Shown: in pieces, positions 9,381 to 46,150 of the stretch
How the letters are laid out: the number at the start of each line of letters is the position of its first letter
How positions within the stretch are numbered: the first letter of the stretch is position 1
Source: a virus
Lineage: Duplodnaviria > Caudoviricetes
Length of the DNA stretch: 47,189 bases
IMG/VR virus record: IMGVR_UViG_3300023283_000092
Span: 1 to 47,189 of that record
Reading direction: 5' to 3' (one strand)
Notes under the pieces: generated by a model
Told to the model about the DNA's origin: nothing
Database searches by the model: none
The model's input: only the letters and a program-made list of their open reading frames with translations
Translations under genes and position numbers: made by a program

Positions 9381-10711
9381 GCGAGAAGTTATACTCTCAG
9401 GAGGCGGAAGTATCCGTGATTGGTGGTTGCTGGATCAAGCCGGATGCGTTTGACGATGTAGCGGAGGTTGTCTCCCCCGAGGATTTTCATGTCCAGGCAA
9501 ATCGGATAATCTTTCGTGCCATGAGGCGCCTACGCAACGAGGGGAACGCGCCTGACCCGGTGGCGGTTCGTGACCGGCTTGTTCGTGACAACGACCTGGA
9601 GGCGGCGGGGGGCGAGGACTATATGGCGGGCATTGTTGATGTGGTGTCCACCGCGCAGAACCTTATGCAGCACGCCCGCATCGTCGCCGACTACTCAGTG
9701 CGCCGATCCGTGGTCATGGCCTGCGATAACATCCGGGGCCGCGTCGGGGGCGGCGGTCTCTCGGCTCAGGAGTCACTCGAGGTAGCGGAGTCAGAGATCT
9801 TCGGCATCGTGAAGCGCCTGGGTAAGCCCACCGCCCTCAAAGGTGCGAGGGATATGACCCGGGATGTCGTGGCGCAGATTATGGCGGGCCCGCCCCGTGC
9901 GTTCGGCACGGGGTTCCCCGACCTCGACTACTACATCAACGGGTTTCGGCCGCGCGAGCTCACCGTTCTCGCTGCCCGCCCCAGCATGGGGAAGACCGGG
10001 ATGGCCCTACAGATGGCGGCGCATGCGGCCGTCAGGGAGAAGAAAAGGGTGGCCATATTCAGCCTGGAAATGGGCGACGAGGACGCGCTCAAGCGCATCG
10101 TGTCCATCGTGAGCGGGGTTGAGGTCACGCGCATCATGCAAGGCCCGCCGGAGTTTAGCGATGACGAGCTCGAACGCATCGACAGGACCGTGGGGAGGGT
10201 GGAGGGCTCCGAGCTCTACATCGACGGCACGGCAGCCCTATCAGGGTTCGATGTTCGCGCACGCAGTCGCCGGCTGGCCCGCAAGGGCGGGCTCGACCTG
10301 ATCGTGGTGGACTACCTGCAGCGTATGAGGGGGAAGTCCAACCGGGAGGCCAATCGGAACGTGGAGATCGGGGGCCTGATTCAGGACCTCAAGTCCGCCG
10401 CTAAGGAGCTCGAGTGCTCCGTGCTCTGCCTGTCGCAGCTGAGCCGGCGCGTGGAGGACCGGAACGACAAGATGCCTGTGCTCTCAGACCTTCGGGAGTC
10501 GGGTGACATCGAGCAGGAGGCCGACCGCATCATTATGATGTACCGGCCCGGATACTACATGGCCCCCAATGACGCGGCAGCCATGGGGGCGGACAAGGTC
10601 ACGGAGGTCTCCGTGAGCAAGAACCGCAACGGACCCACGGGGCGTCTCAAGCTATGTTTTCACGCCCCCACGGCGTCCTTCACCTCTTATCAGGGAGGGT
10701 TCAGTGGGTAG
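9377..10711 (+). CDS. dnaB: Replicative DNA helicase
   Basis: AARPSMGKT, FSLEM, VVDYLQ, LSQLSR, DLRESGDIEQEAD, KNRNGPTG; TTG start. Confidence 0.97.
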   Translation: MSEKLYSQEAEVSVIGGCWIKPDAFDDVAEVVSPEDFHVQANRIIFRAMRRLRNEGNAPDPVAVRDRLVRDNDLEAAGGEDYMAGIVDVVSTAQNLMQHARIVADYSVRRSVVMACDNIRGRVGGGGLSAQESLEVAESEIFGIVKRLGKPTALKGARDMTRDVVAQIMAGPPRAFGTGFPDLDYYINGFRPRELTVLAARPSMGKTGMALQMAAHAAVREKKRVAIFSLEMGDEDALKRIVSIVSGVEVTRIMQGPPEFSDDELERIDRTVGRVEGSELYIDGTAALSGFDVRARSRRLARKGGLDLIVVDYLQRMRGKSNREANRNVEIGGLIQDLKSAAKELECSVLCLSQLSRRVEDRNDKMPVLSDLRESGDIEQEADRIIMMYRPGYYMAPNDAAAMGADKVTEVSVSKNRNGPTGRLKLCFHAPTASFTSYQGGFSG

Positions 10712-10997
10712 GAAAAAGTCGGCTCCGAATCGGGTGCCCCTTAAGGTGTGGTCTCCCAAGCTATATGAGGCATGGGATGAGAAGATCGACACCTTGTTCC
10801 TGAAGGCGTACCCACCCGACAACCGGCCCAATCGTGATGACTGGAACATCAGGCGTGTCGGGTTGTTCGAGACACGGTACTGGACGCAGAGCGATTTCGA
10901 GAAGGCAGATAGGTTCCTGCAGGCCCGTTTGCGCCCGGAGCGCAGGAAGGTTAGTTTCAAGCGAGAACAATTGGCCCTGTTCAACGAGGAGGTGTAG
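10704..10997 (+). CDS. Hypothetical protein
   Basis: GTG start with GGAGG RBS. Confidence 0.6.
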   Translation: MGRKKSAPNRVPLKVWSPKLYEAWDEKIDTLFLKAYPPDNRPNRDDWNIRRVGLFETRYWTQSDFEKADRFLQARLRPERRKVSFKREQLALFNEEV

Positions 10998-11582
10998 GTG
11001 GTTCCCAGGGAGGCTATAGCACATACGATCCGCCACTCCAACATCGGAACGGAACGTTTTAGGCGTGTAATGGAGTGGATCATTGTGGAGCACGAGGGGG
11101 GGTTCGCCGACGACGCTCGAGATCCTGGCGGTAAAACACGATGGGGGATCACGGAGGCCGTGGCTCGGGATTGGGGCTACCCTGGGCCGATGCGGGAATT
11201 CCCACTCCCAAGGGCTTTGTTCGTCTATTTTGACGCCTACTGGCGCCCGTTGCGGCTGACTCAGGTCGCGTCCACTGATGTGGCCGCAGAGATCATGGAC
11301 TCGGGGATCAACACAGGCGTAGCGCAGGCCTCGAAGTTTGCACAGGAGGCGGTGAACATCCTATATGGCGGTGAGGACGGGGAGGGGGTTGCCGTGGATG
11401 GGGTGATCGGGCCCCAGACCCTGCACGCTCTGGGCTACTGGACCGCTAAGGACGAGGCGGCGCTTCTTGCGGCCCTGAACGGGTTCCAGTTCATGCACTA
11501 TCTCGGTCTTTACAGGCGCGGCCCCCGGCTTCGTTATGCAATTAGGTCGTGGGTGCGACGAACCCAGGCAAAGGAGTTTTAA
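10998..11582 (+). CDS. Endolysin, glycoside hydrolase family 108
   Basis: HEGGFADDARDPGGKTRWGIT; VDGVIGPQT peptidoglycan-binding motif. Confidence 0.92.
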   Translation: MVPREAIAHTIRHSNIGTERFRRVMEWIIVEHEGGFADDARDPGGKTRWGITEAVARDWGYPGPMREFPLPRALFVYFDAYWRPLRLTQVASTDVAAEIMDSGINTGVAQASKFAQEAVNILYGGEDGEGVAVDGVIGPQTLHALGYWTAKDEAALLAALNGFQFMHYLGLYRRGPRLRYAIRSWVRRTQAKEF

Positions 11583-12470
11583 GTGGAACTCATTGACCAC
11601 CAGTTGAAGTATGGCGGTGACCTTGGCACCAGGCACACCTTCATCGCCCTGGGCGACACGCATGTCGGTGCCAAGGGGTGCGACATGAAGAAGCTTAAGC
11701 AGGACATTGCCTGGCTCAAGGAGCAGGACCCCGAGACAACACACCTCATCTTGATGGGGGACCTCGGGGACTATGTGGACCAAGGCGATGGCCGCTTCGA
11801 TCAAGAGGATATCGACCGTGACGTGATCGACCTCTACAGCGGGGAGCCCGTCCACGAGCAGGTGCTCAGGGCGCTCATGGACCCCTCGCTGTTCGGCGAG
11901 TTGGACCCGTGGCTGCGCTGTGCTTTACGTGGCAACCACGGCCAGCAGAACAAGAAGGACGCCACCTGGCAGCGGTATGATCGTGTGTTGGCCCAGCGCC
12001 TGGGGTGGGCCCCCGAGGTGCGTGGTGCCGACCCGGACAGGCCGGGCTGGGGTTTGCATGGCGGGTATGACGCGTTCCTGCGGTTCCGCTTTGAGCACAC
12101 GGGCGGAGGTAAGCGTCGCACAGTGATGTTCCACGTTCACCACGGCTGGCAGTCGGGCCGCACGGCGGGCGCCAAGGTCAATCAGTTACAGCGGGAGATC
12201 GGTATGTTCCCGGGCTGTGACTTCCTTCTACGGGGGCACTCTCACGAGCACTTCGCGTGGAAGTACACGGCCCTGGGGACCAACCAGCGGTTCACCGATA
12301 TCCGGCACCGCAACATTGTGGTCGGCCACACGGGGACCTACTTGAGCGCGTACATGTTAGGTGGGGAATCATACGGGGAGCGTAAGCTCTATCCGCCCAC
12401 GGCGCCCGGGTACCTCAAGCTGTGGGCTGATATGACCGAGGATGGCTACGAACTCTGGGGAGGTGTGTAA
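11583..12470 (+). CDS. Calcineurin-like metallophosphoesterase
   Basis: GDTH, GDLGD, GNH, HHG, GHSH. Confidence 0.9.
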   Translation: MELIDHQLKYGGDLGTRHTFIALGDTHVGAKGCDMKKLKQDIAWLKEQDPETTHLILMGDLGDYVDQGDGRFDQEDIDRDVIDLYSGEPVHEQVLRALMDPSLFGELDPWLRCALRGNHGQQNKKDATWQRYDRVLAQRLGWAPEVRGADPDRPGWGLHGGYDAFLRFRFEHTGGGKRRTVMFHVHHGWQSGRTAGAKVNQLQREIGMFPGCDFLLRGHSHEHFAWKYTALGTNQRFTDIRHRNIVVGHTGTYLSAYMLGGESYGERKLYPPTAPGYLKLWADMTEDGYELWGGV

Positions 12471-12601
12471 TGGGCCTGGTTTACGACATGGAAATCACCG
12501 GAGGTATGGCTCCCGAAACCAATCTTGACCTGTTTATTATATGGGGTGCAACTGCCGTCGTGATGCTGGTCTTGTTGTATGCCAGCAAGCTGAGAAAGTA
12601 G
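12470..12601 (+). CDS. Small single-TM protein
   Basis: LFIIWGATAVVMLVLLY followed by KLRK; GGAGG RBS. Confidence 0.5.
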   Translation: MGLVYDMEITGGMAPETNLDLFIIWGATAVVMLVLLYASKLRK

Positions 12602-12692
12602 CTATGCTCTGGCTCCTGGTGTCCATTGTAATGTTTACCACGGTAATGTTGCTCTGTAGGATGAAATAGTTCACTTCACAAGGAGGTAATAC

Positions 12693-12890
12693 GTGTTGAT
12701 GGAACTATTAATGTTGGGGGTGGCGTTCTACCTCGGGGGATGCGTGACCCTGGTGCTCTCGATCAACCTGGGGTGGAACTGGAGGACCCCAACCCCGCTA
12801 ATGGAGGTAGAGCTCGGGGACATTTTGTCGATGGTTCTGTGGCCGTACTGGGCCGCGCTGGGTGTTGTGAGGAGGTGGCGTAATGGCTAG
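12693..12890 (+). CDS. Small membrane protein
   Basis: AGGAGGT RBS, two hydrophobic segments. Confidence 0.7.
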   Translation: MLMELLMLGVAFYLGGCVTLVLSINLGWNWRTPTPLMEVELGDILSMVLWPYWAALGVVRRWRNG

Positions 12891-13014
12891 GCGGCTGTCG
12901 GGCCCCGGGTTCCCCGATCCGGGTACACCTAACTGGGACGACTTGTGGTATGCCGTTATGGTTGCCGTGGCTGCGGGCGCCATTGTTGTCGGGCTTATTG
13001 GAGGGAACCTATGA
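12883..13014 (+). CDS. Small single-TM protein
   Basis: GGAGGT RBS; LWYAVMVAVAAGAIVVGLIG. Confidence 0.55.
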   Translation: MARRLSGPGFPDPGTPNWDDLWYAVMVAVAAGAIVVGLIGGNL

Positions 13015-13262
13015 GCGGCACGACCCCGATCAAGACATGTATGTTGGAGCCAGGGCATGATAAGTTCAGTGCGAGTCGCTTGCTTGCGATAGCGGCCACC
13101 ATCGAAATGTTAGTGCTCGCGCCCGCCGTGCTTGGGTTTATGATGTTCGGACCACTCACCGTGGCCATGCTGGAGTCGTGGGGTGCCTGGGCCATCAAGC
13201 TGTTCGCGGGTGCTGTGTTCCCGTTGGTGGTCAACTACGTGCAGCGGGCCTTCCGTGACTAG
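13011..13262 (+). CDS. Putative holin
   Basis: Two TM segments, SASRLL motif, downstream of endolysin. Confidence 0.5.
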   Translation: MSGTTPIKTCMLEPGHDKFSASRLLAIAATIEMLVLAPAVLGFMMFGPLTVAMLESWGAWAIKLFAGAVFPLVVNYVQRAFRD

Positions 13263-13881
13263 GCTTCGCTGGGCCCTCGTGGCAGCTGCCGCCCTTGCCA
13301 TCGTGTACATTCTTGGGCGCGTGTCAGCCCCCACCCCACCCCCGACCTTCCCCGAGGTGCAGGTGGCCCCGGAGGCGCTCGGGCCGCTCAAGCCCAAGCT
13401 GGACGACTCCTTTATCACGAACCTTCTAGACCGTACCCTGCAACCGTCCCAGGTTGCCACAGCACCAGGCGCCGAGGTTGCGTTAATAGAGCGGTTCTGT
13501 GCCCCACGCAACTCCGAGGGTAGGCTACCCCCCATCGGGGGTGCCGAACCGCCCCAGAGGCCCGTTTCTGTGGCTCTGGCCCCCGTTCTATACACGGGAG
13601 GGAAGTATGACAGGACGACACTGGAACTGTTTACTGCGACTTCGCGCGGCGCTGGCCAGAGGTATCTGTTCGAAGGCGTCCACCGACCACTCGAGTTCGG
13701 ACTCGATAAAGAAGGAAGACCCTTCGTCGAAACCAGCCGAATCTGGTGGCTCGAGCCATCGCTCAGGGTTGGGGCTGGATCAGCTGCCGGCGCAGCAGTG
13801 GGCGGCCTGGCTGCGGGCACGGGCGGGAGCGTCGCGGGAGCGGCGATCGGGGCGATCCTAGGCGTACTGCTGACATACTGA
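13255..13881 (+). CDS. Membrane protein with N- and C-terminal hydrophobic segments (spanin-like candidate)
   Basis: GTG at 13255; N-terminal TM, Gly-zipper C-terminus. Confidence 0.5.
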   Translation: MTRLRWALVAAAALAIVYILGRVSAPTPPPTFPEVQVAPEALGPLKPKLDDSFITNLLDRTLQPSQVATAPGAEVALIERFCAPRNSEGRLPPIGGAEPPQRPVSVALAPVLYTGGKYDRTTLELFTATSRGAGQRYLFEGVHRPLEFGLDKEGRPFVETSRIWWLEPSLRVGAGSAAGAAVGGLAAGTGGSVAGAAIGAILGVLLTY

Positions 13882-13926
13882 CCATATCGGTCACATATTT
13901 CGGACACAACCCATTATAACGGACAC

Positions 13927-13969
13927 AAAAGGCCCCCGAGTGGCGCTAGAAGCGCACACCCCGGGGGCC
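13927..13969 (-). terminator. Intrinsic terminator of tRNA operon
   Basis: GGCCCCCG stem followed by TTTTGT on minus strand. Confidence 0.7.
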
Positions 13970-14004
13970 TGTCTACATGATAGCCTCGCACGAAGCGAAG
14001 CAAG

Positions 14005-14080
14005 TGGTAGCCCCTGCCGGGTTCGAACCGGCGATCTCCGCCTTGAGAGGGCGACGTGTTGCCCGCTACACCAAGGGGCC
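14005..14080 (-). tRNA. trnE: tRNA-Glu(CTC)
   Basis: Cloverleaf, loop CT-CTC-AA, ACCA end. Confidence 0.95.
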
Positions 14081-14085
14081 ATTGA

Positions 14086-14156
14086 TGGCACAGGGACTAG
14101 GAATCGAACCCAGCACGACAAGCTTTGGAGGCTCGTCTGAGCCCAGCCCTCCCTGC
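14086..14156 (-). tRNA. trnW: tRNA-Trp(CCA), miniature D-arm
   Basis: Loop CT-CCA-AA, TTCGATT, GCCA end; D-arm GGGC-TGG-GCTC. Confidence 0.85.
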
Positions 14157-14162
14157 ACAGGA

Positions 14163-14239
14163 TGGTAACGACGGCGGGGCTTGAACCCGCTAGGGACAGC
14201 TTGAAAGGCTGCCTGCTCGACCACTTTGCATTCGCCGTT
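14163..14239 (-). tRNA. trnE: tRNA-Glu(TTC)
   Basis: Loop CT-TTC-AA, ACCA end. Confidence 0.9.
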
Positions 14240-14243
14240 ATGA

Positions 14244-14320
14244 TGGGGCATCGGGCGGGAATCGAACCCGCAACCTCGACGTTGGCAACGTCGCGTTCTG
14301 GCCGATTGAACTACCGATGC
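14244..14320 (-). tRNA. trnG: tRNA-Gly(GCC)
   Basis: Loop TT-GCC-AA, CCCA end. Confidence 0.95.
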
Positions 14321-14324
14321 ATAT

Positions 14325-14399
14325 TGGGGCGGCGCTCGGGACTTGCACCCGATCCACATGGTTGGAAGCCATGCATGCTGCTCGTAACACCTGCACCGC
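14325..14399 (-). tRNA. trnG: tRNA-Gly(TCC), atypical D/T loops
   Basis: Loop CT-TCC-AA; T-loop TGCAAGT; no D-loop GG. Confidence 0.85.
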
Positions 14400-14403
14400 A
14401 TGA

Positions 14404-14482
14404 TGGTGGGTCCGGCTGGAATCGAACCAGCGTCCACCCGCTTAAAAGGCGGGAGCTCTACCTGGCTGAGCTTACGGAACCC
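14404..14482 (-). tRNA. trnK: tRNA-Lys(TTT), bulged acceptor stem
   Basis: Loop CT-TTT-AA; GGGTTCCG/CGGACCC. Confidence 0.88.
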
Positions 14483-14486
14483 ATGA

Positions 14487-14562
14487 TGGTTGGCCCGGTG
14501 GGAATCGAACCCACAACCCTCGGTTTAAGAGACCGACACTCTACCTGTTGAGTTACGGGCCG
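14487..14562 (-). tRNA. trnK: tRNA-Lys(CTT)
   Basis: Loop CT-CTT-AA; C1xA72. Confidence 0.93.
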
Positions 14563-14566
14563 TCGA

Positions 14567-14649
14567 TGGTGAGCAGGGGTGGAGTTGAACCACCACAGCC
14601 TAAGCGGGAGGGTTACAGCCTCCGGGGCTCGCCAATGCCCAGCCTACCC
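14567..14649 (-). tRNA. trnY: tRNA-Tyr(GTA)
   Basis: Loop CT-GTA-AC, variable arm. Confidence 0.92.
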
Positions 14650-14725
14650 ATTGTATGATGGCGACCCAAGCGAAGTGTCGAGAACGAGTCTCGACGTTAC
14701 GCCAGCACGGATGGTCGCCATGTGA

Positions 14726-14811
14726 TGGGGGAAGGCTGAGGAATCGAACCCCTGCCCAAGTGGGCCCCTCCGGGTTCAAACCGGATTGCCGACCATTCGG
14801 CGGAGCCTTCC
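14726..14811 (-). tRNA. trnS: tRNA-Ser(TGA), 8/4 fold
   Basis: Loop TT-TGA-AC; 8-bp acceptor, 4-bp T stem, variable arm. Confidence 0.88.
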
Positions 14812-14817
14812 CTGATA

Positions 14818-14892
14818 TGGACGCCCTGACTGGATTCGAACCAGCATTTACGTGGGTTGCAACCACGCGCCTTCCCGCTTGGCTACAGAGCG
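14818..14892 (-). tRNA. trnC: tRNA-Cys(GCA)
   Basis: Loop TT-GCA-AC, U73. Confidence 0.93.
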
Positions 14893-14899
14893 TTGGTGA

Positions 14900-14991
14900 T
14901 GGCGGCGGGGCAAGGATTCGAACCTTGGCACCCCGTTAGAGGTGGCCTCCGGTTAGCAACCGGGCACCGTTACCTGCTCGGTCAACCCGCC
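14900..14991 (-). tRNA. trnS: tRNA-Ser(GCT)
   Basis: Loop TT-GCT-AA, long variable arm, G73. Confidence 0.93.
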
Positions 14992-14998
14992 TTGAGAA

Positions 14999-15075
14999 TG
15001 GGGCGAGGCTCGGGGATCGCACCCGAATCTCCAGCGTCACAGGCTGGAATCTTGGCTGATTAGACTAGCCTCACC
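14999..15075 (-). tRNA. trnH: tRNA-His(GTG)
   Basis: Loop CT-GTG-AC, G-1:C73; T-loop TGCGATC. Confidence 0.9.
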
Positions 15076-15080
15076 ATGTA

Positions 15081-15150
15081 TGGGGCCCCCACGACGAATC
15101 GAACGCCGCTACCAGCCGTACAAAGGGTGGCTGCTCCCAGAGCTAAGGGC
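15081..15150 (-). tRNA. trnT: tRNA-Thr(TGT), miniature D-arm
   Basis: Loop TT-TGT-AC, D-arm GCTC-TGG-GAGC, TTCGATT; one C-C mismatch in anticodon stem. Confidence 0.72.
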
Positions 15151-15154
15151 CTGA

Positions 15155-15229
15155 TGGCGGAGACGAAGGGAATCGAACCCTCATAGGACGCCTCGACAGG
15201 GCGGTGCATTGCCAGTCTGCCACGTCTCC
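15155..15229 (-). tRNA. trnD: tRNA-Asp(GTC)
   Basis: Loop CT-GTC-GA, G73. Confidence 0.92.
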
Positions 15230-15235
15230 GTAAGA

Positions 15236-15311
15236 TGGTGTCTCAGGGAGGGGTCGAACCTCCGACGCGCAGGGCTTCAACCTGCCGCTCTACCTGCTGA
15301 GCTACCGAGAC
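15236..15311 (-). tRNA. trnF: tRNA-Phe(GAA)
   Basis: Loop TT-GAA-GC. Confidence 0.95.
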
Positions 15312-15316
15312 ATATA

Positions 15317-15394
15317 TGGTCTGTCGGGCAGGATTCGAACCTGCGGCAACCTGGTTCCAAACCAGGGACTCTGGCCTGACTGAGCTACCGACAG
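15317..15394 (-). tRNA. trnP: tRNA-Pro(TGG)
   Basis: Loop TT-TGG-AA, C1-G72, A73. Confidence 0.93.
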
Positions 15395-15398
15395 AAGA

Positions 15399-15474
15399 TG
15401 GTACAGGGCCTAGGAATCGAACCTAGCTGTGCCGCTTTGTAAGAGCGGTGCATCTGCCACTCTGCCAACCCTGC
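15399..15474 (-). tRNA. trnV: tRNA-Val(TAC)
   Basis: Loop CT-TAC-AA, A73. Confidence 0.92.
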
Positions 15475-15476
15475 AT

Positions 15477-15546
15477 GCAGAACACCGGGCGTGCTGCCAT
15501 TACACCACCACGTGGGCTCGGAATCGAACCGAGGTCTCCCGGCTGA
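15477..15546 (-). ncRNA. Circularly permuted tRNA-like RNA (YrlA/Y-RNA-like module)
   Basis: Order: CCGGG stem - T arm - closed mini acceptor hairpin - D arm - CCCGG stem. Confidence 0.75.
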
Positions 15547-15547
15547 T

Positions 15548-15641
15548 TGGTTGCGCCGCCCGGAATCGAACCGGGGCTAACCGCTCATCTGGCGTATCAG
15601 GGTTATAAGCCCTGTCGTGCTTCCAGTTACACTACGGCGCG
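15548..15641 (-). tRNA. Initiator-like tRNA with TAT anticodon and long variable arm
   Basis: CAGGG-CT-TAT-AA-CCCTG, C1xA72, ACCA end. Confidence 0.85.
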
Positions 15642-15719
15642 AAGCTGCGGCCCCCAGGATTTGTTGGCCAACCCCACCGTATACGCGTGGGCGAGGGCCT
15701 CACCGGCCAGGGGGCATGT

Positions 15720-15794
15720 TGGTTGCCGCCGTGGGAACCGACCCCACACTGTCCGCTTATCGGGCGGATGGTCTTCCAGTTAACCTAGGCGGCG
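15720..15794 (-). tRNA. trnI: tRNA-Ile(GAT), atypical
   Basis: Loop CC-GAT-AA, T-loop GTCGGTT, C1xA72; other stem pairs intact. Confidence 0.75.
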
Positions 15795-15798
15795 AAGA

Positions 15799-15875
15799 TG
15801 GTAGCGGTGCCGGGAGTCTAACCCGGGTTACCGGCTTATGAGACCGGTCAGAGAAACGTCCCTAGCCCTACCGCT
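15799..15875 (-). tRNA. trnM: tRNA-Met/Ile2(CAT), atypical D-arm
   Basis: Loop CT-CAT-AA, T-loop TTAGACT, ACCA end. Confidence 0.75.
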
Positions 15876-15926
15876 ATGATTCAGCCCGGCGAGTGCTGCG
15901 CCAGCAGGACCACCGGGAAGATTAAA

Positions 15927-16002
15927 TGGGACCCTCGGTAGGACTCGAACCCACACCAGCGGGGTAGAAACCCGCCGCTCTATTCCGTTGAGCTACGAGG
16001 GC
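15927..16002 (-). tRNA. trnR: tRNA-Arg(TCT)
   Basis: Loop TT-TCT-AC. Confidence 0.93.
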
Positions 16003-16006
16003 ATGT

Positions 16007-16082
16007 TGGCTGTAGCGGCTGGATTCGAACCAGCAACCCTCCGGTTAACAGCCGGGAGCTCTGCCGATTGAGCTACACTACA
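16007..16082 (-). tRNA. trnN: tRNA-Asn(GTT)
   Basis: Loop CT-GTT-AA, U1-A72, G73. Confidence 0.95.
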
Positions 16083-16087
16083 ATAGA

Positions 16088-16164
16088 TGGTGGGCGCGGT
16101 GGGAGTCGAACCCACAAGAGATCGGGTTTGAGCCGATCATGTTTGCCGATTACATCACGCGCCT
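16088..16164 (-). tRNA. trnL: tRNA-Leu(CAA), short variable loop
   Basis: Loop CT-CAA-AC, A1xC72. Confidence 0.9.
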
Positions 16165-16170
16165 ATGGAA

Positions 16171-16246
16171 TGGTGGCCCCGGAGAGATTCGAACTCTCAC
16201 CGCACAGGGTCTAAGCCTGTCGCCTCTACCGTTGGGCTACGGGGCT
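16171..16246 (-). tRNA. trnL: tRNA-Leu(TAG), short variable loop
   Basis: Loop CT-TAG-AC, A1xC72. Confidence 0.9.
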
Positions 16247-16270
16247 GTGTGCCAAGATAGCGCATTAAAA

Positions 16271-16345
16271 TGGGACCCCCGGCGAGATTCGAACTCGCAC
16301 CCGGATGGTTCGTAGCCACCTGCACGTCCATTGTGCTTCGGGGGT
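16271..16345 (-). tRNA. trnR: tRNA-Arg(ACG)
   Basis: Loop CT-ACG-AA. Confidence 0.92.
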
Positions 16346-16352
16346 ATGTCGC

Positions 16353-16401
16353 TGGATGTCTCACGAACGTTAGTGAGTGGGTGCCTCACGAACAGAGTGA
16401 G
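16353..16401 (-). repeat. Two tandem 24-25 bp hairpin+CCA units
   Basis: CTCAC-loop-GTGAG-(G/A)CA(C/T)CCA twice on minus strand. Confidence 0.75.
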
Positions 16402-16475
16402 TGGATGCCACCCCTGGATTCGAACCAGAAACTCAAGGTTCAGAGCCTCGCGTGATGCCGTTTCACCAGGTGGCA
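16402..16475 (-). tRNA. trnQ: tRNA-Gln(CTG)
   Basis: Loop CT-CTG-AA, U1-A72. Confidence 0.93.
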
Positions 16476-16497
16476 TTGATTTCACAAAACTGTGAAA

Positions 16498-16573
16498 TGG
16501 ATGGGCCGGCTGGATTCGAACCAACATCTTCGAGGTTCAAAGCCTCGCGTGTTGCCGATTACACCACAACCCA
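16498..16573 (-). tRNA. trnQ: tRNA-Gln(TTG)
   Basis: Loop CT-TTG-AA, U1-A72. Confidence 0.93.
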
Positions 16574-16625
16574 TCGGGTCGCCGACGTGGGATAAGCCCG
16601 CTCGAGCACGGAACTGCCGGCGTCT

Positions 16626-16642
16626 TTCAGTTGTCAGAAAAC
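16626..16642 (-). promoter_or_regulatory. boxA-like antitermination site
   Basis: GTTTTCTGACAACTGAA just after tRNA-Ala, resembling rrn boxA GTTCTTTGAAAACTGAA. Confidence 0.55.
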
Positions 16643-16649
16643 GCGGTCA

Positions 16650-16724
16650 TGGTGGACCACCAGGGATTCGAACCCTGACCTAACTGCTTGCAAGGCAGCC
16701 GCTCTCCCATTAAGCTAGCAGCCC
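16650..16724 (-). tRNA. trnA: tRNA-Ala(TGC)
   Basis: Loop CT-TGC-AA, G3-U70, A73. Confidence 0.95.
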
Positions 16725-16765
16725 ATCACGACCGTTCTACCGTGTTCTGCGACGGTAGGAGCCCA

Positions 16766-16795
16766 ATTATAACACCACGCCAAGGCTTAGCGCAA
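16766..16795 (-). promoter_or_regulatory. tRNA operon promoter
   Basis: TTGCGC-N18-TATAAT with extended -10 TG. Confidence 0.8.
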
Positions 16796-16799
16796 GTCC

Positions 16800-16838
16800 A
16801 AAAAGAAACGGGGCCAGCATAAGGCCAGCCCCGCTTCG
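16800..16838 (-). terminator. Intrinsic terminator ending structural block
   Basis: CGGGGC stem followed by TTTCTTTTT on minus strand. Confidence 0.75.
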
Positions 16839-16879
16839 CGTAACCGCTTACGCGGCAACGTTTTGCGCGTCCCTGCTAT

Positions 16880-17599
16880 TTACCCCATGGCGCCATCTGC
16901 CGGCCTCACTCGCTCGGCGTCGGGGTTGTCCACCGGCGTATAGCGCACCTCGAGCACACTGCTTGGACCGAACGGACCGGCCACGCCATCGCACACCTCG
17001 CGCGGCAAATAGCGCACCCGATGCTGCACGGGTGACGTCTGTGGGGCCACCCAGTCAATGCCTGACGCCTTGTTCACGACGTAAAACTGGAAGCCCGCCT
17101 TGTCGAAGTCGTCGAGGTCGAAGTTGAACGCCTGCTCGATGGTCGCCACACGGAACGGCTGGGCGCTCGACGGATCTTCGTCAAAGCCGAACTCCAAAAT
17201 CTCCACGTCGCAATCTCCGGCATAGCTGACGGAGACAATGGCGCTCGTGTTGAAGCCGGTAATCACCGTGCCATCACCGAAGACCACGTTGGACTGTTCG
17301 AGCCCCGTGATTTGTGGCACCGACACCGCAGGCGCCGGCTGGGGGTCTGGCCCCACCTGGTTCGTGGTACCCGGCGCCACTGGCTGCGCTGGGGCCTGTG
17401 GCGAGGCTTGTGTGTCGCTCTGGGGTGTTACAAGGATCGTGCCAGGCGCAGGGCCTGGCTCCTTGGGCTCCTCGGGCTGCAACTGTAGCTCCGCAGGCGC
17501 CGGCTCGTCTACCGGGGCGGTATCACAGGCCCCAGACCCCAGGCTGGCCGCCATCAGGCCCGCCAACAGCATTGCTGACGCGAATACCCTCTTGTTCAT
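16880..17599 (-). CDS. Predicted lipoprotein with Pro-rich linker
   Basis: Signal peptide ending ..SGA-C; GGAGGT RBS. Confidence 0.75.
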   Translation of the reverse strand: MNKRVFASAMLLAGLMAASLGSGACDTAPVDEPAPAELQLQPEEPKEPGPAPGTILVTPQSDTQASPQAPAQPVAPGTTNQVGPDPQPAPAVSVPQITGLEQSNVVFGDGTVITGFNTSAIVSVSYAGDCDVEILEFGFDEDPSSAQPFRVATIEQAFNFDLDDFDKAGFQFYVVNKASGIDWVAPQTSPVQHRVRYLPREVCDGVAGPFGPSSVLEVRYTPVDNPDAERVRPADGAMG

Positions 17600-17639
17600 T
17601 CGTACCTCCCATACATGGGTTTGTTGGTGACTCTATAAT

Positions 17640-17954
17640 CTAAGATCTTTCGGTCAGCCGGTCAACTCGCTCCTCGATTCGCGCGAGAGACCGCTGCATG
17701 TCCTCGAGGACGCGAAACCTGGCGACCGCCTCGCCACGAGGCATCATCTTCTCGCGTTGTATCAGGAGCTCGGATCTTACGCTCTCACGGTCCTGGTTCA
17801 CTTGCAACTTGCACGAGTTTAGGTCCGACTCGAGCATAGAGACCCGCCTGTCTATCTGGTTTCCACGACGGAAGTGGTACCCAATGGCACCCAGGCCCGC
17901 ACCTGCCAACAGTATGATTACGCGCACAAGGAGGTCAGACATGAGAGGGTCCAT
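17640..17954 (-). CDS. TM plus coiled-coil protein (holin-like candidate)
   Basis: N-terminal TM, heptad-rich remainder. Confidence 0.6.
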   Translation of the reverse strand: MDPLMSDLLVRVIILLAGAGLGAIGYHFRRGNQIDRRVSMLESDLNSCKLQVNQDRESVRSELLIQREKMMPRGEAVARFRVLEDMQRSLARIEERVDRLTERS

Positions 17955-17955
17955 G

Positions 17956-20900
17956 TTATCTCCTTCCCGATGCGCGCTTCTCTCTCCGCGACCTGCGCAC
18001 TTCTCTCCGGGCGTCCCGAAGCACGCGATTGGCTGTTCTCAAATAACGCTTCTGTAGTAACACAATCTCTCGCGCCTCCTCGGGTCCAACCTCGCGCAAC
18101 AGGGCCTGAACATCATCGTTCTGGCGCCAGGCGATGGCATTCGTGATCGGACCAAGCGGGGCATTGGAGCGGAGTGACGCCTCCACGGATCGGCGCACGG
18201 TCTCTCGTTCCTCCTGGGTCTCGGGCTGCTCGAGCACCGACACGAGGTAGTTTCTGGCGGCGCCAAGGTCTCCCGAGGCCACGTTGTCGAACGCATACTG
18301 GAAGCGCAGGCTCCGCTCGGTGGGCTCTCGGGCGCCACGACCACGAATCACGTCCCCAATGGCACCGGCGACCAGGCTCTCGCCTCGCTGCTGCGCGGCA
18401 AATTCACGCGCACGATTGCGTGTCCGGTTGTATTGGGGGAAGAAGTTGTCTTTGCTGAAGCCCTGTTCCACCTGAGCCACGATGTCAGCGCCCAACTGCG
18501 CAGCGGGCACAGATGACTGTAGTGTCTCGTTGGCGGCGGCCAGCATTTGCTCGAGCGATTGATCCTTGGTGACCTGCTCGATACCCTCGCCAAATTGTTG
18601 CAGTTGACTGTAGAGAGGACCCCCTGCGAAATTGTCCCACCCCCAAACGAGGTCGGTGACGATGCCCACCACGGCGCCATCGGCCATATGGTTGAGTGTC
18701 TGCAGAGCCCACTCCTCAGTCGAGTCTAGCTGCGAGGGGTCGGTCAGAAGTTTGGAGGTGATGGACTCTTGCCGGTCACGGAACACGTCTCGAGCGACGT
18801 TCCATATCTCGGCGATGATACCACCCGCCAGGATGATCTTCGCCGCCGGGGCTAGGTTGCCCTTGACGGCCTCTTGAAACACGGCCTTCCGAACAAACTC
18901 GAACTGCTTGGCCATGAAAGGCTTAAACTTAAACAGTGTCCGAAAGGCGCCGCTCTGACCCCACAAGATGGGCTGGGTAAGAACATCCATGGCGAAGTTG
19001 CGGTCCTCGTTGGCGCGGATAGCGAGTGCGCTCAGGTCGTCCGCAGACATGCTGTCCCCACGCCTCCAGGCCTCGACAAGCTGGGCCTGGAGCTCGGGAT
19101 CATCCGTAAGTCGTTGAGCGCGGTCAAGCGTGGAGCGAGTAACCTGGCCAGGCTGCAGGTTCCGCACCTCGCCGCCCACGTCTTCAAGCGCCCGACGACT
19201 CTGTATCAGCCTATCGGCACCACCCTCGCCGCCAGCCAGGCGCTCCAGGGTGCGCACGCGCTTAGCTCTAACCGCGCCAGTCGGATCGGCAACAGGCAGC
19301 CTACGACCCCCGAGCAATGGCACGCCGAACGGAATCTGACGACCCTGGGCCTGCAGGGGAATCACACCCTCTCCCAAGGCCTCGAAGTATTGCGCCAAAC
19401 GGGACCCTGTGGGGTTGTTCTCGGAGCGAATGATTCTGTGGGTCAAGAGCTCGACCGCACGCTTGGCCGTGATTGATGTGGCAATCTGGTTGCCAGCCTC
19501 TCCGGGCAAAAACCCGGTGGCCCGCAACACGGCGTCCGTAACACCCTCAAGAGGCGCACCCTCGATGATGTCCTGTGTAGCTGTGGCGCGGGCACGCACG
19601 CCTCCGGTGCGGATGGCCTCGTCGGTCAGTTCAGCGATCTTCTGCGCCCGCTCACCGAGCTTCCTAGACACACGCTCGAGTCCGGCCTTCTCGCTGATGC
19701 TAGCTGCGCTACCCATAAACCGAGACGCCACGGGGGGTAGGTCGCGCGCAAGGGTGTTAAATTGCACCGATATTGGCAGGTCCACCGTGTTTACGAATCT
19801 CTGGCCGACCTGGCGAACCGTGGTGAACGGGCTGGACAGCTTTGCCGCTGTTAGGGCGTTTGAGACGAGACCCCATATCTGAGTCGAGGCAAGCGGCTCG
19901 GCATTCGAGCTACCGAACGTCATGCGGTGGACGTTCTCCACAAGATCCGCCGCGCCCTCATCGACACCCCGCATTCTTTGGATAATGGCATCCGCCTGCG
20001 TGCCGTTCACACCAAACTCGTTAATGCCTTCGATAAACAGGGCCTCGCGCTCGAAGAAGTCTTCGGCCCACCTTATGTAGTCCTTCTCGATGAAGGGATC
20101 AGGTAGGCGTATACGTTCACGCGTGTAGTAACCCAGGTCGGCGTGGAGGTTTCGGTCATAGAACGATTTAATCATGGCGAGCGCGGTGTCCACGTCAGGC
20201 GCATTGCCTTGCTGCACCATAAATTCTGCGGTTGCACGGACGCCCCCATCACCCAACCCCTTGTTCTGAGCGTCTCGGATCAGCTTGATACCATCCTTGT
20301 TGACGATCATGGGCAAGAATCGACCAGAGCCAGCGGCAGCCCTACCGTTACGCTCGCCGCCCATGGCTATAAAGTCCTCAAGACCGCGGTCAAAGATGGG
20401 ACGGTGATCCTCGATGGCGTTTCGAATGCGATCCGTGGGTGCGTTCTTCTCGCGCAGCAAAACCCCGTCCCCATCCACTTCGTCTCCAAACTCGTCAACA
20501 AGGTCCCAGATTATCTCCCTGTCCGCTCTGGACAGCTTGTGCTTGGCAACCACGTTCTTAAGGTCTTCAAAGTTTCTCGACTTGCGTGGAAGTGCCCGCC
20601 CGATGGCCGCACGCATCTTGGTGGCGTACTGCCCACCCAGGTTCTCACCGAAGATGGCCGGCACCGCGTTCTCGAGACGGGAGAAGTTCAACTTGGCGAA
20701 CTGTGTGGCACCAGACAGGCCCTCCTGAATAGCAGACATCACGGTCCCACCCAGGGCCTCCGCAAGCTCTTCGTCGGGCGTGAGCTCACCGGCCCTCTTC
20801 TTGCCCCCGATCGCACGGGAAATGCCATCCTTGATGCGCTCGGCACGGTTAAGGTTTCTCACGTCCGCCGCGTTCTGCTCCGTAGCCGTGCGGGCTGTGT

Positions 20901-23900
20901 TGGCTGTGCTCCGGGCTGCGCGAACACTCCCCTCGCCTGCGCCCGTAACATCGTCAAAGATTCGCGTGGCGCCCGCCTCGCTGCGCAGACGCCCTCTTGC
21001 TGACTGTGCGTCCAGTTGCGCCTCACCACGGACCTCGGCAACCTGAGCGTCAAACTCGTCGAGAAGTCTCTCGGGTAGGATGCCACGGATAGAGGCGACC
21101 ACGCGGTCATCCTTGAGCCTCTCCGCTCTCTGGCGCACGTTATCGAGTGCCGCCTGTGTCTCGGGGTCCAGTGTTCTTCTGGCGGTCCCCGTGGCGCCAC
21201 GCTGTGTTGCGAGATTGGCCTCGATGCGGGGGTCGGGGATTGCGCGTGGGGGCTGGCCGAAGGTGGTTTCTATGCCACCGCCCTCCTCAAACCTTTCCAC
21301 AACCTGGATGTCTTCGGGCGCAAAACGAAGCTCGGCCTCGTTTGGAATATGGATCGCTTGCCCGCGAGACCCTCTCGGCGCGTTCCCGCCAAGGATAGAC
21401 CCGGACGCCGAGGATCTGGCCTCCACGTCAACAACACCAATGTTGTCAGGGTCCATATCGCGGAACCTACCAAACGACCCATCGACGTCTGAGAGGATCG
21501 TGGTCTGCTTGATAGCCCTTGGCTCGCCACCCACGTTCCTTGACACGCCAAGCTGATCCAAAGACCTGGCGAGCCTGTACGTGTTCCTGGGTGATTCGTT
21601 TGCAATTGCCAGGATGTTGTCTATGAAGTTGTCCGCTAGCAAGGCCCGGTCCACAATTCCCGTGCTATCCACACTATTGTCCAGCGCATCCTGGAACGCA
21701 CGGTCCACCTTGTCATCGCCGAGCCTTAGTGTGCCCGTGAGGCCTTCCATGAGATCTGGATCGTTGATATCGCGGCCCCACTTGTTCTCGAAGTGACGAA
21801 CCACGTCTTCCGCAGTCGCCTCACCGCGAGCCGCCCTTGCAGTTATGCGCAGGTCATCTGCGATCGTTTCGGCCTTGGCCCTGCTGTACGTCACGCTGAC
21901 CGTGTTGTGGGTCCCCCCGGCAAGAACCCCATCATCAGACTTGAGTTGCCCCCTTGACGCCAGACCCTTTCGACGTACGTTGTTAAGATCTGTTGTGGCG
22001 TGAAACAGGCCGTCGTCAACAAACTCTTCAGGGATGGCCAGGTCAGCACGAGCGATCCACACGTCAGGGTTGCCCGTGAATTCTGTCTGCGTTGCCACGC
22101 GAGAGGTCACCCCGGCCGCACGGGTCGATCCCTCGCCCGCCCCGGTGACGCCCTCAAAGACGCGGGCGGCACCCCGACGATTGCCGATGACGCTGGCCTG
22201 GTCCTGCATCACACGTTCAACAGCCGTCAGTAGGGTGTCGCTCTTTCGCTGGGCCACGACAATTGTCGGCTTGTCTCCGGGTAGTCTGGCCACGATCTCG
22301 CCAGAGCCGTTGATGACAACCCGGTCCCTGCCTGGCGAGTCTACGACATTGAACGTTTCACCGTTGATTGTTACTTCGCGGTCCGCAACCCTCGGGCCCC
22401 TGTCGGCCGGTGTCTCTTGGCGTGCGCGGAGGGACGCCTGTGGTCCCACATCGGGTCGCACGACATCCGGTCTTCGGCTGGCGTCTATGGCCGCTTGCTG
22501 GGCCGGCGACAGGATGGCGTCAGGTCCCACCTCGGGGCGCACCTCTGGCGGCCTCAAGGCCGCGTCACGTGCAGCCTGCTCGGCTGCAGACAATTGTGCG
22601 ACCTGCTCTGGCGTCTGGAGGGCAAACGGTTCTGTTATAGGGTCGAACCTGGACTCGGTTGCAAGATCAGCAAGGGCGCTGTTGACATTGATCTCCTCCC
22701 CTGTTGGGAAGCGCCATACGCGCACCCCTTCAGGGGTCGTTATGATCTCAGCGCCCTCGGCAATCTGCCTTGACACGCGCTGGAGACGCTTCGTTGGGAT
22801 GAGCTGTAGGATGCGGGCCTCGTCGCCAGAGGCGAGGGCGTCCCGTAGCTGACCCGCCCGCCCCCCACCACCCAAGGCACCACCGAAGACGGCCACGATA
22901 CCGGCCATGGCCGCCGTGCGCTCGTTGATCTCGCCCTCCTCAAGCGCCTGTGAAAGGGCACCCAGGGCTGCGCCCTCTGGCCCAAATCTTGCAGCGCCCT
23001 CAGCAAACGCTGTGCGGAACGGAGCCCTCACCGCGAACTGTTCGGCTGCACTCGCGGCGCCCGCCCGTCTCACGCCACGGGCGACCTGGCGACCCACACC
23101 CACGCTCGCGCGTACGGGCCCGAGACCCGCGAGCTCGATCGCCGCTTCACGGTTGATGAGGCCGGCCAGGTCAAGCGCAGCAATCACGTTAGGGTTGAAC
23201 CCCTGCTCCACAGCACGCTCGATGCCCTTCTCGGACACCTCGCGACCACCTGCGTCGGGTGGCAATACCCCGCCCGAGAACACGAGACCCGCAGTCTCGG
23301 CGGGCTCGCCAACGACGTCGGGGATCGCTCGCGACAGGGCGAGTGTCACACGCGATTCCGTGCTCCCCGGCTCGGCACCCTCGGTAACCACGTCGCGCAC
23401 GCCCCCGAGTACCCTGTCAAGGGTCAGGTTGGCGTTGGCGAGTGCTCGCTGCAAGGCGTTCGGCGCCAGCGTCTCGAGCTGATCCTCCTTTGGCGCCGGG
23501 AACACGGGCCTGCTGCGATCGGGCTGTAGGCGCGACTCCCGGGTCTCGCGGGGCGGACCCTCAACAGAGAACGTAGACGGACCACCAGGAGTGTCTTCCG
23601 GTGTGCCCTCAACTACCCCCTGGCGGGACGTGAGCTCGAGTAGCTCTGCCCGCGACTTCTGACGCTCCACGCCCAACCGCTCAGACGGACGCCCCGTCTC
23701 CGGTGTACCCACAAGGATGCCAATACGACCGCGGGGGATGAACGAGGCGTCGGGTTGGGACTCGGGTTCAGGCGCAGGCGCGGGCGCGGGCTGACCCCGG
23801 TCGGGTCCCCGCACACCGAAGGCCTCATCCAGGATCCGGTTGCCCGATCCGGCCCCTGCATCGAACGCCTCATCGAGCACGCCCGAAACTCCGGTGCCCC

Positions 23901-23961
23901 GGGAGGGGTCGCCCTGGGCGCGGCGGACTCTGTCTCTTAGATCGTCAGAACGTGTCGCCAA
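17956..23961 (-). CDS. Large internal virion/DNA ejection protein with probable ADP-ribosyltransferase-like domain
   Basis: 2001 aa, Ala/Gly-rich helical, last of three ejection-like genes; FHATT..SVT..EAE motifs; TTG start. Confidence 0.75.
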   Translation of the reverse strand: MATRSDDLRDRVRRAQGDPSRGTGVSGVLDEAFDAGAGSGNRILDEAFGVRGPDRGQPAPAPAPEPESQPDASFIPRGRIGILVGTPETGRPSERLGVERQKSRAELLELTSRQGVVEGTPEDTPGGPSTFSVEGPPRETRESRLQPDRSRPVFPAPKEDQLETLAPNALQRALANANLTLDRVLGGVRDVVTEGAEPGSTESRVTLALSRAIPDVVGEPAETAGLVFSGGVLPPDAGGREVSEKGIERAVEQGFNPNVIAALDLAGLINREAAIELAGLGPVRASVGVGRQVARGVRRAGAASAAEQFAVRAPFRTAFAEGAARFGPEGAALGALSQALEEGEINERTAAMAGIVAVFGGALGGGGRAGQLRDALASGDEARILQLIPTKRLQRVSRQIAEGAEIITTPEGVRVWRFPTGEEINVNSALADLATESRFDPITEPFALQTPEQVAQLSAAEQAARDAALRPPEVRPEVGPDAILSPAQQAAIDASRRPDVVRPDVGPQASLRARQETPADRGPRVADREVTINGETFNVVDSPGRDRVVINGSGEIVARLPGDKPTIVVAQRKSDTLLTAVERVMQDQASVIGNRRGAARVFEGVTGAGEGSTRAAGVTSRVATQTEFTGNPDVWIARADLAIPEEFVDDGLFHATTDLNNVRRKGLASRGQLKSDDGVLAGGTHNTVSVTYSRAKAETIADDLRITARAARGEATAEDVVRHFENKWGRDINDPDLMEGLTGTLRLGDDKVDRAFQDALDNSVDSTGIVDRALLADNFIDNILAIANESPRNTYRLARSLDQLGVSRNVGGEPRAIKQTTILSDVDGSFGRFRDMDPDNIGVVDVEARSSASGSILGGNAPRGSRGQAIHIPNEAELRFAPEDIQVVERFEEGGGIETTFGQPPRAIPDPRIEANLATQRGATGTARRTLDPETQAALDNVRQRAERLKDDRVVASIRGILPERLLDEFDAQVAEVRGEAQLDAQSARGRLRSEAGATRIFDDVTGAGEGSVRAARSTANTARTATEQNAADVRNLNRAERIKDGISRAIGGKKRAGELTPDEELAEALGGTVMSAIQEGLSGATQFAKLNFSRLENAVPAIFGENLGGQYATKMRAAIGRALPRKSRNFEDLKNVVAKHKLSRADREIIWDLVDEFGDEVDGDGVLLREKNAPTDRIRNAIEDHRPIFDRGLEDFIAMGGERNGRAAAGSGRFLPMIVNKDGIKLIRDAQNKGLGDGGVRATAEFMVQQGNAPDVDTALAMIKSFYDRNLHADLGYYTRERIRLPDPFIEKDYIRWAEDFFEREALFIEGINEFGVNGTQADAIIQRMRGVDEGAADLVENVHRMTFGSSNAEPLASTQIWGLVSNALTAAKLSSPFTTVRQVGQRFVNTVDLPISVQFNTLARDLPPVASRFMGSAASISEKAGLERVSRKLGERAQKIAELTDEAIRTGGVRARATATQDIIEGAPLEGVTDAVLRATGFLPGEAGNQIATSITAKRAVELLTHRIIRSENNPTGSRLAQYFEALGEGVIPLQAQGRQIPFGVPLLGGRRLPVADPTGAVRAKRVRTLERLAGGEGGADRLIQSRRALEDVGGEVRNLQPGQVTRSTLDRAQRLTDDPELQAQLVEAWRRGDSMSADDLSALAIRANEDRNFAMDVLTQPILWGQSGAFRTLFKFKPFMAKQFEFVRKAVFQEAVKGNLAPAAKIILAGGIIAEIWNVARDVFRDRQESITSKLLTDPSQLDSTEEWALQTLNHMADGAVVGIVTDLVWGWDNFAGGPLYSQLQQFGEGIEQVTKDQSLEQMLAAANETLQSSVPAAQLGADIVAQVEQGFSKDNFFPQYNRTRNRAREFAAQQRGESLVAGAIGDVIRGRGAREPTERSLRFQYAFDNVASGDLGAARNYLVSVLEQPETQEERETVRRSVEASLRSNAPLGPITNAIAWRQNDDVQALLREVGPEEAREIVLLQKRYLRTANRVLRDARREVRRSRREKRASGRR

Positions 23962-23971
23962 TAGTCACTCC

Positions 23972-46107: not shown

Positions 46108-46150
46108 CGAAGGGCGAGATAAACGACGACCCTAGCAGGGAGCAAGAAAA

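Follow-up and report, generated by a model that had tools for sequence, protein, structure and literature searches.

The virus record IMGVR_UViG_3300023283_000092 of IMG/VR, analysed over its entire length of 47,189 nucleotides (nt) and referred to below as the window, possesses a dense array of tRNA genes on the minus strand (14005–16724). ARAGORN at default settings finds 26 of them. A Met-like tRNA(CAU) (15799–15875; 29.6 bits in Rfam) is added as the 27th gene at a relaxed threshold, and tRNA-Trp(CCA) (14086–14156) as the 28th; the latter is detected only with ARAGORN -ps80 or as a 25-bit match to the tRNA-Sec model and, when folded by hand, shows a fully paired acceptor (7/7) and G73. All 28 genes end with an encoded CCA, 19 of the 27 spacers are 3–7 nt long, and the block of ~2.7 kb contains 10.3 tRNA genes per kb, taking up ~6% of the 46-kb phage genome. 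The gene count, the CCA ends and the short spacers had been proposed in an earlier note made from the letters of the sequence, and ARAGORN, suggested there as a check, bears them out. Both thresholds of Morgado and Vicente for a viral tRNA gene cluster (at least 15 genes; at least 2 per kb) are exceeded, and the anticodons cover all 20 amino acids.

Read in the direction of transcription (all features on the minus strand; ARAGORN predictions unless stated otherwise), the array opens with tRNA-Ala(UGC) (16650–16724; G3-U70, A73) and a 76-nt spacer (16574–16649), structured on folding and giving no Rfam match; a hepatitis delta virus-like ribozyme was considered for it and rejected, as no matching P1 could be found by eye. 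Next lie tRNA-Gln(UUG) (16498–16573) and tRNA-Gln(CUG) (16402–16475), both with U1-A72, and a spacer (16346–16401) where reading by eye shows a pair of short hairpins that resemble each other and both have CCA after them. The short hairpins of this spacer and of 16476–16497 are alike, two with CCA after them, and resemble minihelices. Then come tRNA-Arg(ACG) (16271–16345; C73), tRNA-Leu(UAG) (16171–16246) and tRNA-Leu(CAA) (16088–16164), both with a short variable arm and A1×C72, tRNA-Asn(GUU) (16007–16082; U1-A72, G73), tRNA-Arg(UCU) (15927–16002; C73) and a spacer hairpin predicted by folding (15876–15926). The Met-like tRNA(CAU) that follows is an irregular elongator type without the initiator signature; it lacks U8, has a poor D arm and a replaced C56, and is flagged as a ‘possible pseudogene’.

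The middle of the array comprises tRNA-Ile(GAU) (15720–15794; C1×A72, C33, atypical T loop), a tRNA-like remnant recognized by folding (15642–15719; no CCA, no T loop), a tRNA(UAU) with a long variable arm (15548–15641; C1×A72, three G-C pairs in the anticodon stem) and a circularly permuted tRNA mimic found by eye and folding (15475–15547), which has no anticodon, CCA or Ro60 motif. They are followed by tRNA-Val(UAC) (15399–15474), tRNA-Pro(UGG) (15317–15394; C1-G72, A73, A37), tRNA-Phe(GAA) (15236–15311), tRNA-Asp(GUC) (15155–15229; G73) and tRNA-Thr(UGU) (15081–15150), an irregular gene with a 3-nt D loop, C×C in the anticodon stem and an ambiguous acceptor register. The distal part holds tRNA-His(GUG) (14999–15075; encoded G-1, C73), tRNA-Ser(GCU) (14900–14991; long arm, G73), tRNA-Cys(GCA) (14818–14892; U73), tRNA-Ser(UGA) (14726–14811; long arm, C73; also matched in Rfam) and a rod-shaped remnant seen by folding (14650–14725), with an acceptor-like outer stem and no CCA, D arm or T arm. 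The last genes are tRNA-Tyr(GUA) (14567–14649), tRNA-Lys(CUU) (14487–14562; C1×A72), tRNA-Lys(UUU) (14404–14481), tRNA-Gly(UCC) (14325–14399) and tRNA-Gly(GCC) (14244–14320), both with C73, tRNA-Glu(UUC) (14163–14239; a low 28.2 bits in Rfam), the irregular tRNA-Trp(CCA), with a shrunken D arm and a 7-pair anticodon stem, and tRNA-Glu(CUC) (14005–14080).

A probable sigma70-type promoter precedes the array (16766–16795, minus strand), with an extended -10 element (TG-n-TATAAT, 16774–16766) and a weak -35 element (3/6, 18-nt spacer), and its probable terminator is a long G+C-rich hairpin with a short T run behind it (13925–13970, minus strand). These signals fit a single transcription unit, as the earlier note had it. 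However, the promoter was read by eye and the terminator by eye and folding, and a consensus scan listed neither, so that ‘one promoter and one terminator’ is a reading rather than the result of a tool. The scan did find an intrinsic terminator with a 14-pair stem and T run (16805–16837, minus strand); lying upstream of the array, it closes the late structural operon.

A single 31.5-kb contig, possibly from the source run itself, covers 9500–24500 with 0 differences and flat depth, and two additional runs supply contigs that bridge both array edges, in one case with strain single-nucleotide polymorphisms (SNPs); the assembly support comes from four runs, all of one study. With flat depth and edges bridged in three runs, the read continuity that the earlier note had wanted checked places the array in the phage genome, and its misassembly is unlikely. 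Within the array, the phage's own contigs show two strain SNPs among the matches listed, both inside the remnant at 15642–15719.

The array is not shared by related phages. Among 41 virus records with 40–53% capsid identity, many of them fragments, one carries tRNA genes (two) and 40 show none; the same search returned 25 matches in the window as a positive control. None of the three capsid relatives that are at least 90% complete has a tRNA gene, and neither have two additional relatives. The array is therefore lineage-specific and clearly not a family trait, and we read it as a gain in an otherwise tRNA-free family. No close relative carrying it was found: no phage record contains more than 6% of the array, and the flanking phosphoesterase retrieved no locus in viral contigs when used as a query. 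A look for RNA data sets containing it gave none either, which carries no information about expression. The record with 98% capsid identity (L003) is a fragment of the opposite genome end, that with 84% (L008) is covered to 10 kb past the capsid gene, before the array position, and 13 other phage records match the capsid at 20–26%. Capsid relatives also occur at 13 genome loci; five of these are labelled Gemmatimonadota, one lying within a 1.18-Mb contig, which makes this phylum the probable host, likely a Gram-negative one.

For comparison we used a Gemmatimonadales genome (G044) as a proxy at class level only, not as the true host; 20 stretches of it cover 60 of its 61 Rfam tRNA matches. None of these 60 tRNAs has an encoded CCA, their structures are canonical, and global alignment of the array genes to them gives scores of 35–52 of about 75. 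These data bear on whether a host tRNA island was misassembled into the phage or captured by it; the earlier note had raised the first of these against its own claim. The host-class genome does have tRNA clusters, and the read support comes from one study; however, the flat depth, the contigs across both edges, the unlikeness to host-class tRNAs and the absence of a larger part of the array from any phage record largely refute the idea, and we find it hardly credible. The clusters of the Gemmatimonadales genome itself (L226, L227) consist of 18 and 12 genes, none of them CCA-encoding.

An array of 28 genes in 46 kb is rare, with precedent. A 2019 survey reports tRNA clusters of 15–37 genes in 228 virus genomes of 72–617 kb, with densities of ~2–10 per kb and eight clusters holding all 20 isotypes (PMC6409571). 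The window array resembles those clusters in gene number, density class and isotype range, but sits in a 46-kb genome and has 10.3 genes per kb. The statement in the earlier note that arrays this large are typical of much larger phages is true of that survey, yet it is not supported in view of the Streptomyces cluster BF podoviruses of ~46 kb, five genomes with 16–21 tRNAs (PMC9753666). RosePharie (OP021678; 46,026 bp) is annotated with 22 tRNAs that serve 19 amino acids and carries an unannotated tRNA-Phe(GAA) with an atypical T loop at 17506–17578 (ARAGORN -ps90), so it too reaches 20 amino acids at the same genome size once the threshold is relaxed. Shaeky (45.6 kb) has 16 tRNAs, and an uncultured, 100% complete phage of 67.9 kb (G165, L088) gives 27 Rfam tRNA matches. 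In view of RosePharie, the array as such will be no great surprise to a specialist. The array of G165 holds ~29 tRNAs, with CCA encoded in 25 of 29 according to our parser, short-arm Leu genes and odd anticodon loops.

The window phage shares with cluster BF and RosePharie a 46-kb podovirus genome with a single compact tRNA array, and with RosePharie a short-arm tRNA-Leu(UAG). However, none of 24 window proteins matches RosePharie (E ≤ 1e-4) and the gene order differs; gene content gives no placement in cluster BF or Beephvirinae. It carries 28 tRNA genes against 16–23, encodes CCA in 28/28 against 3/21 in RosePharie, adds a long-arm tRNA(UAU) and a permuted mimic, and probably infects Gram-negative Gemmatimonadota. 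The count per genome length lies above the compared cases, and among these the combination of a higher count, full CCA encoding and near-minimal design is new, as are the probable Gemmatimonadota host, the gain in a tRNA-free family and the embedded Ro60-free mimic.

Codon usage was counted over 12,573 codons in 49 hand-picked open reading frames (ORFs). The array would read 47 of the 61 sense codons by ordinary wobble and 59 with superwobble of U34 and A34 as inosine; CGG (157 of 12,573) and UUA (19) stay unread, and the major capsid gene contains neither (0 CGG, 0 UUA). A CAU initiator tRNA is missing, the CAU gene having no initiator marks, and at best 59 of 61 codons, short of a set that reads all 61 and initiates, are covered. 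The earlier note was right that no RtcB, ligase, CCA-adding enzyme or aminoacyl-tRNA synthetase is recognized: none of these, and no TROVE or integrase gene, was found among 63 ORFs searched against PHROGs and Pfam, and NCBIfam and PADLOC over 39 ORFs gave nothing relevant (RtcB, ligase, CCA enzyme, synthetase, TROVE). Its description of the array as a self-contained pool was overstated, since the initiator and the CGG and UUA readers are absent, the only genes for Thr, Trp and Met have an irregular structure, and the host must supply every enzyme for processing, modification and charging. All amino acids are represented by anticodon, with the same reservation about these three genes. Judged from its predicted decoding, the array is a near-minimal supplement and not a self-contained set.

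Another purpose of such an array would be to provide tRNAs for codons more favoured by the phage than by its host. An exact anticodon exists for the most-used phage codon in 12 of 18 degenerate amino acids, and in cluster BF the capsid codons correlate more closely with the joint tRNA pool (PMC9753666). The exceptions are Thr, Arg, Pro, Leu, Ala and Val, in which the phage favours C- or G-ending codons and the array has U34 or A34 readers; four-codon boxes mostly have one U34 reader each, contrary to their C- or G-ending preference, which indicates a minimal broad set rather than codon compensation. Moreover, a dedicated tRNA exists for each of the rare codons AAA (12%), CAA (19%) and AUA (10%), but not for CGG, which makes up 14% of Arg codons. 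We therefore regard compensation as quite improbable.

The quality of the individual genes is uneven. Compared with Table 1 of PMC9976931, the array keeps the identity elements of Ala (G3-U70), His (G-1, C73), Cys (U73), Asp, Asn and Trp (G73) and Pro (C1-G72, A73). Acceptor stems are paired in most genes except at position 1:72, which is mismatched in five (UAU, Ile-GAU, Lys-CUU and both Leu). tRNA-Thr(UGU) gives no tRNA-model match in Rfam at E ≤ 5. The combination of a 3-nt D loop and an extended anticodon stem nevertheless recurs in the tRNA-His of another phage array (one of five pattern matches), so the form may work. This tRNA-His (L247, 1484–1552) lies in the array of a 182-kb phage, has a 7-pair anticodon stem and is built like the Thr and Trp genes of the window. 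Irregular members of this kind (3-nt D loops, short-arm Leu, long-arm UAU, C73 in Gly and Arg) probe how far the identity rules of bacteria extend.

The earlier note had suspected additional decoy or processing RNAs in the array. One permuted mimic and two remnants are indeed present; the decoy role is putative. The mimic (15475–15547) consists of a T arm (5/5 pairs), a 9-nt sealed acceptor of ~2 pairs, a D arm (4/4) and a closing helix of 5–6 pairs resembling an anticodon stem. Its cloverleaf-like fold has an energy of -19.3 against -25.0 for the minimum-energy fold, a gap of 5.7 kcal that speaks against it; several ordinary array tRNAs have equally low T-arm probabilities. The order of T arm, closed acceptor stem-loop and D arm, with tRNA-invariant elbow bases, is also that of the YrlA Y RNA (RF02553; PMC4201824). 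However, the mimic has no GNCGAAN(0-1)G motif and no outer Ro60 stem, and its acceptor is reduced. RF02553 gives no match over 15475–15547 at E ≤ 5 (at least 69 bits being the YrlA criterion), and no TROVE (Ro60) gene was detected in the genome at E ≤ 10, with one among 121 genomes of the probable host class. On its sequence features the mimic would act as the tRNA domain does in a Y RNA, and it is not a member of YrlA. Weak YrlA matches elsewhere in the array (18–31 bits) were discarded, as they fall over other tRNAs and their junctions. The tLRNA families (skipping-rope, DUF2693-FD, salivarius-1) were likewise rejected as relatives, since they keep the acceptor helix and have non-canonical elbows, a different topology.

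Similar units recur in other phages. A pattern of a T arm closely followed by a D arm occurs in 109 stretches of viral contigs (110 matches including the window); the T arm lies inside an ARAGORN tRNA in 40 of the 110 and the D arm in 6. Another 50 are located outside tRNAs and have good stems in both arms; they comprise 42 distinct units. Although the search pattern did not include the closing helix, at least 4 of its 5 pairs form in 26 of these 42 units, against 5.9 with shuffled partners (maximum 13 in 2000 shuffles). Counted once per sequence cluster, a paired closing stem is found in 17.7 of 33 against 4.7, a figure attained in 0 of 2000 shuffles. Several pair types occur at every closing-helix position. 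The permuted mimic thus stands for a recurring phage RNA class, which Rfam does not recognize in the loci tested: 20 permuted-unit loci gave no YrlA match at gathering score and a weak tRNA match at one. In 41 other records with such units TROVE was found in 6 and DUF2828 in 10 others (6 over the cut-off); we infer that DUF2828 may play the Ro60-like part. DUF2828 was found in none of the 121 host-class genomes, where the positive control went undetected likewise.

In large phages, many permuted units are enclosed by a longer outer stem whose 5′ strand bears a CAGCAA-like word. A loose pattern finds this in 16 of the 42 units, the word being repeated in some, and such loci (L129, L139, L152, L158, L170, L174, L195, L215, L217, L223) often lie in records with DUF2828 or DUF7788, not TROVE, possibly a Y-RNA-like system with a different protein. 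Literature searches that did not extend to subscription papers brought up no title or abstract on Ro60-free permuted mimics or long-arm UAU tRNAs in phages; the supplement of PMC4201824, which covers phage YrlAs, may bear on this.

The tRNA(UAU) at 15548–15641 belongs to a phage family: a D-arm pattern retrieved 48 loci, 28 of which carry it, in 15 distinct sequences (L070–L115). The D arm of the family is invariant, its 22-nt variable region contains a conserved loop, and 27 of 28 copies have A73. A gene annotated as tRNA-Ile in Stenotrophomonas phage DLP6 is 83.5% identical over 83% of the window gene. By its 7/5 build the window gene differs from the 8/4 or 9/3 allo-tRNA(UAU) of PMC5389517. 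C1×A72 is present in the window copy and in none of the 28 others. A diverged homologue of positions 15560–15634 lies on a 439-base contig of run X1 (8 differences, 1 gap). Since runs X2 and X4 show the same differences, these samples hold a further organism or phage with such a gene.

Bacterial initiator tRNAs are marked by a 1×72 mismatch, G2-C71, C3-G70, A73 and three G-C pairs in the anticodon stem, and further by a CAU anticodon, purine 11-pyrimidine 24 and a short variable loop. The window UAU gene has all of the first set and none of the second (UAU, U11-A24, long arm). An initiator-specific reading is weakened by the 1×72 mismatch also occurring in Ile-GAU, Lys-CUU and both Leu genes. 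A search for initiator-like UAU tRNAs elsewhere gave three pattern matches, two ordinary short-arm tRNAs and one that is not a tRNA, and was set aside. Recoding of AUA by this tRNA was rejected too: Ile is the aligned residue for 13 of 41 AUA columns, similar to AUC (282 of 817), so recoding is not indicated.

We favour, at about an even chance, the explanation that a lineage-specific, horizontally acquired operon tops up the host's tRNA pool for nearly all codons in lytic growth, most likely as insurance against tRNA loss to host anticodon nucleases or toxins. It starts from the observed layout, CCA ends, breadth and loop changes, and predicts transcription, processing, charging and benefit. 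The model behind it is that of PMC10264068 and PMC11555353; phage tRNAs are reported to rescue infection from retron-Eco7 and PrrC (PMC11555353). The breadth and compact, phage-borne form of the array fit replacement or top-up, the role given to it in the earlier note, although the pool is not self-contained. Host sigma70 polymerase would produce a single ~2.85-kb transcript, from which host RNase P and 3′ nucleases may release the tRNAs; a CCA-adding step would be unneeded, CCA being encoded, and most array tRNAs would be charged by host synthetases. Altered loops and sheer dose could let phage tRNAs outlast cleavage, with initiation and the decoding of CGG and UUA staying on host tRNAs. Processing of its two neighbours would free the permuted unit as a ~70-nt uncharged elbow mimic, which most likely binds or titrates a tRNA-recognizing host protein, not Ro60. 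In such a compact 2.9-kb cassette, models of replacement, starvation boost and decoy are separable gene by gene.

Anticodon-loop changes are the signature proposed for such a model (PMC10264068). Of 26 comparable loops 16 are unlike those of the host-class genome; in Pro, Leu-UAG, His, Arg-ACG and Gln-UUG, A37 replaces G37. Several observations weigh against the insurance reading. The other ten loops, both Lys included, are unchanged, and loops differ from the same Gemmatimonadales genome as often in RosePharie (15 of 19) and G165 (14 of 23), so the changes mark phage tRNAs generally rather than defence. Several identity elements are lost: the two Gly and two Arg genes, Thr and Ser-UGA have C73, and both Leu tRNAs have no long arm, as is also the case for Leu of RosePharie and G165. 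Rfam scores are lower (median 54.6, n = 25) than in the host-class genome (68.2, n = 61), and the two CCA-less remnants (15642–15719 and 14650–14725) fit partial decay.

The last points suit a recently captured, partly decaying cassette, with a working core and with the Thr, Trp and Met genes, both remnants and the permuted mimic as debris. Its patchy occurrence among relatives agrees with this, as does the position of both listed strain SNPs in a remnant. Against it, CCA is kept in 28/28 genes and the acceptor stems are paired outside 1:72 in most; the recurrence of the 3-nt D loop build in another phage's tRNA-His and of permuted units with paired closing stems over 33 sequence clusters also counts against it. 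We hold this reading to be unlikely.

A general translational booster, supplying tRNAs in slow or starved hosts with small pools and without any link to nucleases, is the main rival, less probable than the insurance reading. Broad coverage (59 of 61 codons) fits it equally well, and the ten unchanged loops also speak for it. Bacterial L-arrays such as the Anabaena trn operon are likewise horizontally spread, supernumerary, near-complete tRNA operons; they have up to 43 genes and are reported to aid survival under translational stress (PMC8421152). The window array differs in being phage-borne, and no repressor or leader attenuator was found: upstream lie three short ORFs of 17–23 codons with 8–13 distinct residues (null mean 13.7), none of which begins inside the short leader that follows the -10 site. 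A simple booster would need neither systematic loop changes nor an encoded CCA, and the absence of the two missed codons from the major capsid gene likewise counts against one.

A bolder version of the insurance reading treats the array as an anti-tRNase kit, in which a CCA-ready near-minimal set nearly carries late translation alone, the elbow mimic serves as decoy for host enzymes that target tRNA and the initiator-marked UAU tRNA stands in for cut tRNA-fMet. The capsid gene without CGG and UUA fits any scenario with only phage tRNAs left. We consider the kit improbable.

The genome around the array is podovirus-like. PHROGs and Pfam identify terminase, portal, capsid, DnaB, RuvC, a Cas4-like nuclease, deoxynucleoside monophosphate kinase, NT5C, a metallophosphoesterase and a GH108 endolysin; an early ORF of 208 amino acids (752–1378) has no Pfam, PHROG, NCBIfam or PADLOC match. 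Bases 1–127 are identical to 46129–46255, and 128–494 recur at 46823–47189 (98%). The terminal identity implies a circular unit genome of ~46.1 kb with a variant tail appended. The 567 bases between the terminal repeats (46256–46822) look like a strain-variable insertion at 127/128, added by the assembler.

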